Assembly: GCA_951406725.2 (NCBI GenBank) | Contig: OX597837.1 | Location: 9,982,001-10,046,000 of the forward strand | Source of the DNA: Octopus vulgaris | Lineage: Eukaryota | Direction of reading: 5' to 3' | DNA length: 64,000 bases | In this document: positions 35,922-39,622 of the stretch, piece after piece | Layout of the letters: each line of letters opens with the position of its first letter | Position numbering within the stretch: position 1 is the stretch's first letter | Notes under the pieces: model-generated | The model's database searches: none | The model's input: only the letters and a program-made list of their open reading frames with translations | What the model was told of the DNA's origin: nothing | Translations under genes and position numbers: made by a program

Positions 35922-36311
35922 AAGGAATTGCGCCAAATTTTGGCATTGTAAGCTACACCAATGCTAGAACGGGACGACACTGCATAGTGCCAAAGACCCC
36001 AGCAATGCCATCGCGCTTCAGGACCAGCTACTGCAACAGCCCGGGTTTCAAGGGCCCACAGCTTTTTAATATTCTCCCAAAGAGTCTGAGGAACTTGCAC
36101 AAAGTAGATGTAGCGGTTTTTAAATCAAAGCTGGACCTCTTCCTGTCGAGAGTCCCAGATGAACCTGCCTCACGGCAAGAGGTGCAAATGAGGGTAGCTA
36201 TATCAAACTCCATTCTTCAACAAGTGCCACATATTAGAGGAGGCTCTTAGTAATAACAGTGTAGCACAAAACGGCGGTGCATCAGCATGGCCGCAGCTCT
36301 GAGCTGAAACT
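35922..36311 (+). mobile_element. 5'-truncated LINE: ORF2 C-terminus and 3' UTR (CR1/L2-group-like)
   Basis: Peptide GPQLFNILPKSLRNL...FKSKLDLFLSRVPDEP is typical of post-RT C-termini; the 3' end matches the SINE family 1 tail. Confidence 0.75.
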
Positions 36312-36411: not shown

Positions 36412-36680
36412 GTATTTTGGTTTTTCTGGGAGTCCCTTTTTGAAGTAGAAGAAATAGCTAACGTTTTTTGGCTGCTATTTCTAAACTTCGGTATGTGGTA
36501 AAGCAAATCTTTGCTGAACCCTGATTATAAAGTATATATATTATATATTAATTTTATATATATAACCTTAGCTATTTCTTCTACTTTAAAAAGAAACTCC
36601 CGGAATTCATGCCGAATTCTACTTGGTGAAATTATTGATTATTGGTTAATTAATTAATTTTACCCTTTGTTATTATTGAT
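36412..36680. repeat. Rearranged copy of the 7131-7450 foldback element
   Basis: Shares gctgctatttctaaacttcggt...gctgaaccct and catgccgaattctact...ccctttgttatta. Confidence 0.75.
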
Positions 36681-36691
36681 AATATATATAA

Positions 36692-36753
<62 letters not shown>

Positions 36754-36833
36754 CCATTAGAACTCTTCCTCTAATGTTGTTTCGCTCTACTTGCAGGGTA
36801 CATTTGTGGTTCAAGAACAACAATCGGCACAGA

Positions 36834-39435
36834 ATGGCAGACAGTTCTGGTGTTCCACAGACACACCAACCGAGTTCTGCCGATCTTTGCCGAAGTGGAA
36901 GTCGAAGCCGAAACGACGACGTCGACGACGACGAGAACCTACCAGAGCACGAAGAAAACCTCTCCGTCGCCGCCCTCGCCTCCAGCAGCAGCAGCAGCCG
37001 TGGCAGCAGCAGTAAGAACAGAACCTTCACTCATCATCTGCAACAGCAACAAGAACAACAAGAACAGCAGCAGCAGCAACAACAAACGCAACAACAACGG
37101 AATCTACAGCATCCTTCGCATCTCCTTCCATCCCTGCCTCCCCCCAATCATCATCATCATCATCAACAGCAGCATCAGCATCATCATCATCATGAGCATA
37201 ACAACAGCAGCAACACCACCAACAGCAGCAGCAATATCAGGAGCGGTAGCAGAATCGGCAATAGTAGTAGTAGTAGTAGTAGTATTAACAGCAGCAGTTG
37301 GAACTTAGCGGCACGTGACCGCCTGCAAACGAGATGGAATGGTACTGACGCTGGCGGCGGGGGTGGTGGTGGTGGTGGTGACGGTGGTGGAGCCGACGGT
37401 GGCGCCGTCGGTGGTGGTGGTGGCGGCCGTTTTCCTAATAGTAATATTAGTAGTAGTAGCGTTGGTGTAGGCGGTGGCTTTGTCTATAGTGGTGGTGGTG
37501 GTGGTGGTAACGGCGGTGAAGTTGTTAGTGGTGGTGGTGGCGTATATACTGGAGCTATAAGTCGTGACGGTGGTGGTGGTGGTGGCGGCGGTGGTGGTGT
37601 ATGTTGTAGTGTTGGCACTGGTGTTGGTGGTAGCGGTGGAGCTGTAGTTAGTATTACTGGTGGTGGTGGTGGTGGTGGTGGTGATTCTGCTACTGCCAGT
37701 GCTGGCGACGATGGTGGTGGTGGCGGTGGTGGTGGTGGTGACGGTGGTGGTGGTGGTGACGGTGGTCTTAGTGTTAAAGGAAAGCGCGAACGGTGGGGAA
37801 GAAAAAGGAAAAACAGAGGTGATGGCGGTGGTTGTAGTGGGAGAAGAATAAAAAGCGGCGGTGCTGTGGTAAGCATTTGCATGCGCGACCTCACAACGTC
37901 CGCGTCGGCGTCAGCGTCGACGTCGACGTCGCTATTGTCGCCGACGTCGTCGTCGATGTCGACGTCGACGACGGCGCCGAACATCGCCGCTGGAGCCAAC
38001 GTCGCCGGCGTCGGCGAGACTCGAGAAGGACGTGAAGATAGAATCGGTGGTGACGGCGGCGGCGGGGGCGGTTGCGGAGGGGGCGGTGGTGGTGGTGGTG
38101 GTGGTTGTGGTGGTGGTGGCGGCGGTGAGGCAGTAATTGGTGACTGCAGAGCGCGGTTGAAACCGGGACGGCTACAAGAAGACCAGCATCATGATCATCA
38201 CGATCATCATCATCATCAGGATCAAGAGCAGCATCAGGGGCCGCACGAGCCGCAGGTGCATCGTCGAGGGCGTTGTGGTGGTTGTTTGTATTGTTGTTAT
38301 TGTACACCCACTTCCCCCTCGTCTCCCCCCTCTTCCACTTCAAATCCTCCTCGCATTTCGCCGCCGCCACTACCACCACCACCATCATTATCATTATCAT
38401 CACCATCATCATCATCATCGTCATCATCATTATCGACATCACCGTCGTCGTCGTCGTCGTCGCCGTGTTGTTGTGGCTCTGACCATTCCAAGTGGCGGTG
38501 GTGGCGCTGCCGTCGCAATGGCCACGGGCAGCAGCAACAGTCTAAGGATTATGACAAGCAACGACGCCGCGACCACCACCACGTACGGGAACGCTTTGGT
38601 GAAGGCGGCGGCGGCGGCGGCGGCGGTGAAGACTTCGACGACGACGACGAAGACGACGACGATGACGACGAAAGACAGCAACTGCAAGAACAACGATGCT
38701 GTTCTCATAAACATCATCATCACCATCATCATCATCATCGTAATCGCAGTCCACAACATCATGGAAATAATAACAATAATAAAACTAATAATAATAATGA
38801 TAATAAGAGCAATAATAATAATAATAAGCGGAGCCATCATCATCATCATCATCATCAACATCATCAACATCATCAACATCATCATCATCAACATCATGGC
38901 CGCCGGCATCGCCGACACCGCCATCTTGATAATCAGCAGGAGCAACAGCAACCGTTAGTCGAAGAATACAGAGGAGAACAAGAACAAGAAGAACAACAAC
39001 AGAAACAGCAGCAGCAGCAGCAGCGGCCGCGGCAGCAGAGGCAGCAGCAGCAGCAGCGGCAGCGGCAGAAACTACAAGATGGCGACGGCGCCGACGACGA
39101 AGGGGAAGAAGAAGAAGAAGGAGAAGGAGAGGAGGAGGAAAAAAACGGAAAAGCAAAACAAGGAGAAAAGGAAAGAGACGAAGAGGCAGCAGTCGGAGGA
39201 CGACGCGGAGGAGGAGGAGGAGGAGGAGGTGGAAGTAAAAGAAGGGGAGGTAGAGGAGTAGCGGGTAGAGGTAGCAAGGGCGCTGGAAGGAGTGAGCGGC
39301 ATCAGTGCTATCGACAACACCAGTCAGATAGTGATGAGGCGTGCGGGATGTGTGAATTCCGACCAAAATGGATGCAGATTTTCAATAATCCACGGGCCTT
39401 ACTCTTCTTCCTTTGCGCAGGATCTTTTATACAAG
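36834..39435 (+). CDS. First coding exon of an OATP / solute carrier organic anion transporter (SLCO4-like) with a very long low-complexity N-terminus; exon 36797-39435, continues beyond the window
   Basis: Acceptor ctctaat...ctctacttgcag|G at 36796/36797; cacagaATGG Kozak context; 867 open codons; ends ACGMCEFRPKWMQIFNNPRALLFFLCAGSFIQG, matching the SLCO4A1-type CG..F.P..LQ..N.PK..LFFLC...F.QG motif before and within TM1; phase-1 donor CAAG|gtaagt at 39435/39436. Confidence 0.85.
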
Positions 39436-39502
39436 GTAAGTCAAAATTTATTGGCCGAATATATACACACACATATATATATAAATATATATATATATAT
39501 AG

Positions 39503-39622
39503 AATTATAATTTAGGGTATCTGAGAGATAGCACCACGCTGGAAATAGTAGGGTTTTTGGAGTCAGATTTTGGCTGCTATTTCCAGCGTGGTGGCATCTC
39601 TGAGATACCCTAAATCATAATT
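39503..39622. repeat. Hairpin with ~48 bp arms just downstream of the splice donor
   Basis: aattataatttagggtatctgagagatagcaccacgctggaaatagtag versus ctgctatttccagcgtggtggcatctctgagataccctaaatcataatt. Confidence 0.85.

Follow-up and report, generated by a model that had tools for sequence, protein, structure and literature searches.

The window analysed here, a 64,000-nt stretch of the 2.8-Gb Octopus vulgaris genome (C24:9982001-10046000), contains a long low-complexity reading frame that runs without interruption into the first conserved motif of an OATP/SLCO transporter. It raises the question of whether this frame is a real coding exon, where its translation begins, and whether a transporter tail of such length has a function of its own or has simply been allowed to grow.

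The frame lies in a single exon, exon B, at 36797-39435 on the plus strand. Exon B is 2,639 nt long, runs from phase 2 to phase 1, and holds 879 whole codons with no stop; the stop counts of the three plus frames within it are 0, 10 and 79, and the open one is stop-free from 36654 to 39515 (953 aa from stop to stop). It is preceded by a splice acceptor with a pyrimidine tract and CAG (36774-36796), which ends a 128-kb intron, and followed by a phase 1 donor, GTAAGT (39436-39441), which opens a 52.5-kb intron to exon C (C24:10073986). Its first residues (VHLWF..NN, 36798-36827) are kept in a relative, P0022, at 7 of 10 positions, and stand 5' of an in-frame ATG at 36834-36836 whose context is favourable, with A at -3 and G at +4. 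Between this ATG and the donor there are 867 codons plus 1 nt, and everything that the first-pass annotation had described in them is present: a basic patch, KGKRERWGRKRKNR (37776-37817), the Cys clusters CGGCLYCCYC (38274-38303) and, 3' of a Pro/Ser block, PCCCG (38463-38477), and finally the SLCO pre-TM1 motif with the first half of TM1 (39333-39435). This last segment is identical to P0022 at 29 of 34 residues and to the O. bimaculoides protein P0004 at 30 of 30. The remaining features, likewise on the plus strand, are an S/Q/H/N run block (36981-37286), into which RNA contig letters reach only as far as 37030, a poly-Gly block of GGT and GGC codons (37353-37763), and a G/D/H/N/Q/E run block (38604-39143) with the highest disorder tendency (FoldIndex-type score -0.63 to -0.69). 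A Pfam search with exon B alone gave no family match. Upstream of the exon, a 108-aa ORF at 35924-36250 on the plus strand, also with no Pfam match, is similar to the final portion of a LINE reverse-transcriptase ORF.

All 34 perfect repeats of at least 12 nt in exon B are trinucleotide and cover 22% of it, whereas the flanks hold 157 and 102 dinucleotide repeats at 9-10% coverage, exactly the contrast that had been pointed out before. The description of the extension as built from homopolymers holds only in part: the exon does contain 37 runs of nine residue types, but identical-residue runs of at least four make up just 224 of the 867 aa. Markov simulations of exon B were run at four orders with 300 trials each, and none of the 1,200 reached 879 codons, the maximum being 596. 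With the frame randomised per block, the chance of an open frame ranged from 4e-3 for 600-nt blocks to 3e-10 for 30-nt blocks. The second-longest ORF within the surrounding 204 kb measures 403 aa. As controls, we used 18 other repeat tracts of the genome, returned by a search with the H/N/Q block in which 150 of 26,207 candidates were scored; their longest frames were 96-283 aa in all 18, and in 11 of them that frame contained hydrophobic runs. The runs of at least five residues in exon B are all non-hydrophobic (27/27; P=0.011 counted per codon class, the runs not being independent). We conclude that the exon B frame stays open beyond chance. The earlier argument from the frame in which AGT and AAT runs are read does not carry this conclusion on its own (four perfect runs, P=0.20); the simulations and controls do.

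RNA was viewed letter by letter in contigs covering 36762-37335 from 4 of 24 public runs, with 37031-37335 skipped as repeat; for exon B this view comprises 36797-37030, its first 234 nt. Contigs of run X1 (organism A) and run X10 (organism B) begin exactly at 36797 and carry loose ends that are 103 and 185 letters long. Thirty loose-end letters have a single match in the genome, at C24:9890310-9890339, with a GTAAGA donor directly 3' of it. This unique upstream match and the adjoining donor therefore indicate spliced RNA, in which an upstream exon, exon A, is joined to exon B, and the junction is found in contigs of two of the four runs compared, from two organisms and two studies. Exon A (C24:9890156-9890339, 184 nt by its acceptor) lies 128 kb upstream and outside the window. 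Its first two ATGs, the first at C24:9890257, are in frame with the transporter and stand behind an in-frame stop; because only 30 letters of the loose ends were read, we infer RNA coverage of the upstream ATG from their length. Contigs of X1 and X6 extend 307 and 319 further letters past the aligned part, and run X15, with no gene contig in the compared stretch, gives no evidence either way. For the exon as a whole, RNA-type runs (type guessed) contain up to 0.57 of the words sampled from 36700-39500, and four other runs of the same species contain 0.00-0.05. The exon ends alone could account for no more than 0.25 of the words, and much of the exon middle is therefore present in the RNA-type runs.

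Exon B is thus probably not the first coding exon, with translation starting in exon A instead, and the residues that P0022 keeps 5' of the ATG at 36834 support translation from exon A. The ATG at 36834, initially taken as the start codon, is residue 41 of our model; as the exon can be read from its acceptor onwards without a stop and the likely start lies upstream, that assignment is probably 40 codons off, and the extension, put at about 830 aa, becomes a tail of about 889 aa. The ATG is a possible second start site, and P0022 also has a Met just past its conserved exon start. The exon A peptide is single copy in the genome and matches no Pfam family.

Several details of the 5' region deserve record. 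Exon A has two out-of-frame ATGs after the in-frame pair; leaky scanning to either of them would start an overlapping frame, and the two frames would end near window positions 37015 and 37308. The X6 contig starts at 36796, one letter 5' of the exon, without a loose end, and the X10 loose end exceeds exon A by one letter; possibly these offsets reflect other 5' neighbours or unspliced RNA. At 36889, all three covering runs, from both organisms, read A against G in the assembly (Cys to Tyr), which is an allele or an assembly difference, because the direction is wrong for A-to-I editing on this strand.

Downstream, O. bimaculoides SLCO4A1 aligns to the end of exon B and to nine further exons, C to K, which end beyond the window at a stop at C24:10111096. 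Exon-wise identity is 86-99%, except for one block across an intron. The resulting model joins 11 coding exons across introns that are all GT-AG, has no internal stop, and predicts a protein of 1,628 aa, composed of an 889-aa tail and a 739-aa core. We call the gene putatively SLCO4A1-like, after the NCBI name of its O. bimaculoides orthologue. PF03137 scores over cut-off in six downstream exons, in line with the original family assignment, and the O. bimaculoides protein (86-99% identical) scores 424 bits to it. The available part of PMC12274398 gives a Cys-rich, Kazal-like extracellular loop 5 as a trait of OATP/SLCO proteins (PMC12274398). Kazal_2 is over cut-off at residues 391-433 of the O. 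bimaculoides protein P0014, an identical stretch is found in exon I, and the core holds 24 Cys. Among solved SLCO structures, 13 sequences align with the core, the best at E 2e-72. The OATP signature D-x-RW-[IV]-GAWW-x-G-[FL]-L lies at loop 3/TM6; here it stands at residue 1102, with N replacing D and Y replacing F/L, and aligns with DPRWIGAWWLGLL of SLCO2A1. By its PF03137 match, Kazal loop, signature and likeness to solved SLCO structures, the core is, as far as sequence comparison tells, an ordinary OATP. A plain hydropathy scan found nine segments above 1.6, all within the core, the tail reaching at most 1.41. Being 5' of TM1, the tail is predicted to be cytoplasmic, and it scored as disordered in most 100-aa windows, the Gly-rich ones being near neutral. 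Runs occur in other exons of the same gene as well: a Q14 run in the central loop (C24:10105511-10105849) is not found in the related protein P0003, and the C-tail has a T10 run (C24:10110496-10111096) that is T7 in O. bimaculoides. Across the genome, at least 17 of 76 PF03137 matches (contigs C2, C3, C4, C10 and C24), several of them clustered, span the profile start, and the OATP family is therefore sizeable in this genome.

The tail of this model was then set against its counterparts. P0022 (ENA) is a translation across the matching exon that shares both ends with exon B but has 157 codons against 879, a 722-codon in-frame difference in the exon middle. The related P0003 cluster (Logan, 788 aa) is 78% identical to P0014 in the core (448/577) and likewise keeps the two ends of the exon, and together with P0022 it probably represents another cephalopod lineage. 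In P0003, P0005, P0006 and P0022 the E and Q runs differ in length, in frame. Within octopus RNA, the organism B contig shows a 3-nt deletion and six gap letters in total, with the same net length; its substitutions, in three codons only, are all non-synonymous, introduce no stop, and include one shared with organism A runs. All indels observed, in the organism B contig and in P0022, are thus in frame, and no frameshift of the kind envisaged as a counter-argument was seen.

Among paralogues the tail stands apart. The equivalent exon has 62-63 codons in two of them, and the distance from the presumed first Met to the E[KR]xF motif is 97-163 aa in all eight others measured and 170 aa in P0003, against 922 aa here; this is indeed a real spliced OATP/SLCO exon that is very long for its family. 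Candidate long first exons in other paralogues, with listed frames of 650, 641 and 840 aa (L007, L015 and L018), were not reproduced on the loci. A phmmer search with the 867 aa returned 13 matches, of which P0022 and P0023 are relatives via the SLCO motif, and the five further matches examined resemble composition matches. For the first 75 aa of the tail, no homologue was found among 25 candidates of 77-245 aa, and the ESM Atlas gave no usable match for the octopus tail or that of the relative; neither blank shows absence. Protein searches found no octopus protein carrying the extension.

The gene structure, the open frame, the 5' splice junction and the difference in length from the relative are seen directly in the data. 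Taken together, we consider it moderately probable that this is an intact SLCO4A1-like gene with a disordered predicted tail of about 890 residues, likely grown by trinucleotide slippage and likely tolerated rather than needed. Ribosomes would start in exon A and continue across exon B, and the 739-aa core would fold and work as a normal sodium-independent organic anion carrier. Its substrates may be steroid conjugates, prostaglandins or thyroid hormones, as predicted by family from the available part of PMC13472791. Slippage in a microsatellite-rich genome would strike a tail that was already of low complexity, and selection would purge frameshifts, stops and hydrophobic runs, with length and sequence hardly constrained; the tail would likely retain only the generic roles of an SLCO tail, phosphorylation and trafficking control. 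Slippage filtered in this way accounts for the open frame, the composition and the lack of conservation, so that a new function is not required. Microsatellite expansion, as first proposed, remains the best explanation of the size (879 codons against 157 in the relative and 62-63 in two paralogues), with growth here, as opposed to shrinkage in the relative, read from paralogues and family norms. Against pure tolerance, all eight measured paralogues are short and growth is not family-wide; tolerance leaves growth in a single paralogue unexplained, and there is room for an adaptive role.

Such a role is the alternative that survives best, although we regard it as unlikely. It holds that the octopod tail is adaptive, through metal binding or acylation at its His and Cys residues, binding of acidic lipids by the basic patch, or clustering of transporters by its Q, G and N runs, and that it would regulate where and when the transporter works. 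In its favour, the exon B part of the tail contains 22 Cys and 70 His, its blocks differ in charge, the extreme length is confined to one measured paralogue, and O. bimaculoides has a counterpart of part of the H/R/Q block. In that species the P0014 model begins at a position that corresponds to 38896, read in the +1 frame (14/19 identity), and related DNA is therefore present at this place; the G/D/H/N/Q/E block at 38604-39143 thereby has a partial counterpart in that species, in a +1-frame reading. In human SLCO4A1 it is the short disordered tail that bears the main phosphosites, according to the available part of PMC13472791. However, P0022 has only 6 His and 2 Cys and its tail, like those of the P0003 cluster, shows small E and Q runs without poly-G, poly-H, poly-N, the basic patch or the Cys clusters. 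The octopus tail middle shows no collinear conservation with P0022, block shuffles scoring as high as the real pair in 44-145 of 150 trials. Conserved islands hinted at by a low-gap-cost alignment were rejected, as block-shuffled and reversed controls scored equally. Moreover, the tail matches no Pfam family, and the few changes observed are non-synonymous. The special tail function proposed in the first-pass annotation is therefore unsupported by these comparisons. A bolder form, in which octopod microsatellites were turned into a working regulatory domain of 890 residues, rich in His and Cys and patterned in charge, that is metal-sensing or metal-binding or clusters the carrier at the membrane and was born in one lineage, appears less likely still.

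We find it improbable that the exon is transcribed while the working protein is mostly short, by way of a late ATG (39348 or 39372), another promoter or cleavage of the tail. The start of the RefSeq model P0004 is the Met that corresponds to 39348, two Logan proteins of the relative, P0010 and P0012, were called from the same Mets, and the X6 start one letter 5' of the acceptor may mean another 5' neighbour. Nevertheless, an untranslated leader of 2.5 kb would not remain free of stops and frameshifts, 19 ATGs precede 39348 within exon B alone, and the exon start is conserved as protein 5' of every ATG of the exon. It is highly improbable that the repeat-rich middle is partly spliced out or inflated by the assembly, leaving a much shorter real tail: exon B does contain four donor-like sites, the word share peaks at 0.57 of a possible 0.94, and about 300 nt seem to be left out of P0014, the older O. 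bimaculoides model, but the RNA contigs use the acceptor at 36797, no acceptor-like site lies within 37050-39420 (simple pyrimidine rule), contigs of three runs read across the donor-like site at 37012, the word share is more than twice that from the ends, and all 1,860 31-mers of the middle are distinct, so that it is not a collapsed or duplicated array.

Of all the OATP N-termini compared in this work, the predicted octopus tail is the longest, and it exceeds the transporter core in length. Public octopus models drop it, and octopus proteomes may lack repeat-rich exons more widely. With its 157-codon counterpart in the relative, it offers a clean case for the limits of slippage-driven tail inflation and for a possible gain of role; if it is merely tolerated, the outcome is an annotation fix and the extreme of a known process.

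In the literature covered, which leaves out most subscription journals, we found nothing on this gene or on octopus homorepeats, and nothing on the N-terminus of Oatp30B; the available part of PMC13282606 has nothing on coding repeats, and that of PMC5877716 cites a paper on the OATP1B3 N-terminus. The closest known proteins are the models of other octopuses. O. bimaculoides SLCO4A1 (XP_052832463.1, P0004; XP_014785004.1, P0014) is the same gene with the same junction of exons B and C, yet P0004, P0014 and the O. sinensis model XP_029657101.2 (P0013) measure 664, 686 and 209 aa, and none of them includes the extension. These three models have three different starts: P0004 at the internal Met equal to 39348, P0014 in another frame, and P0013 within exon C. 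Judging from the window DNA, translation in P0014 seems to begin at a +1-frame ATG, and the model seems to include an intron whose donor is weak and whose acceptor is purine-rich.

According to the available part of PMC13472791, human SLCO4A1 (OATP4A1) has 12 TM helices, carries steroid conjugates, prostaglandins and thyroid hormones independently of sodium, and has an N-terminal region that is disordered and phosphorylated. It has 722 aa, of which residues 1-52 are disordered, compared with 1,628 predicted aa and an 889-aa tail in octopus. Of seven OATPs found above 1,162 aa, in a search that is weak as evidence of absence, only P0019 (JGI/Logan, 1,234 aa) has a long N-terminal tail; the other six are either doubled or fused models, or proteins whose additional length lies in another part. 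The P0019 tail is of low complexity, about 390 aa long with three runs of at least five residues, and precedes PF03137 from residue 398. It is under half the octopus length and not homologous to the octopus tail, and shows that long OATP tails arise elsewhere too.

In coding microsatellites, only tri- and hexanucleotide repeats change length, according to the available part of PMC3590770. Exon B shares this change in multiples of three with other expansions of coding homorepeats, but here 37 runs of nine residue types are gathered in one exon of a membrane transporter. The growth of coding repeats by slippage is known as a process, and what is new is the extreme size of the tail.
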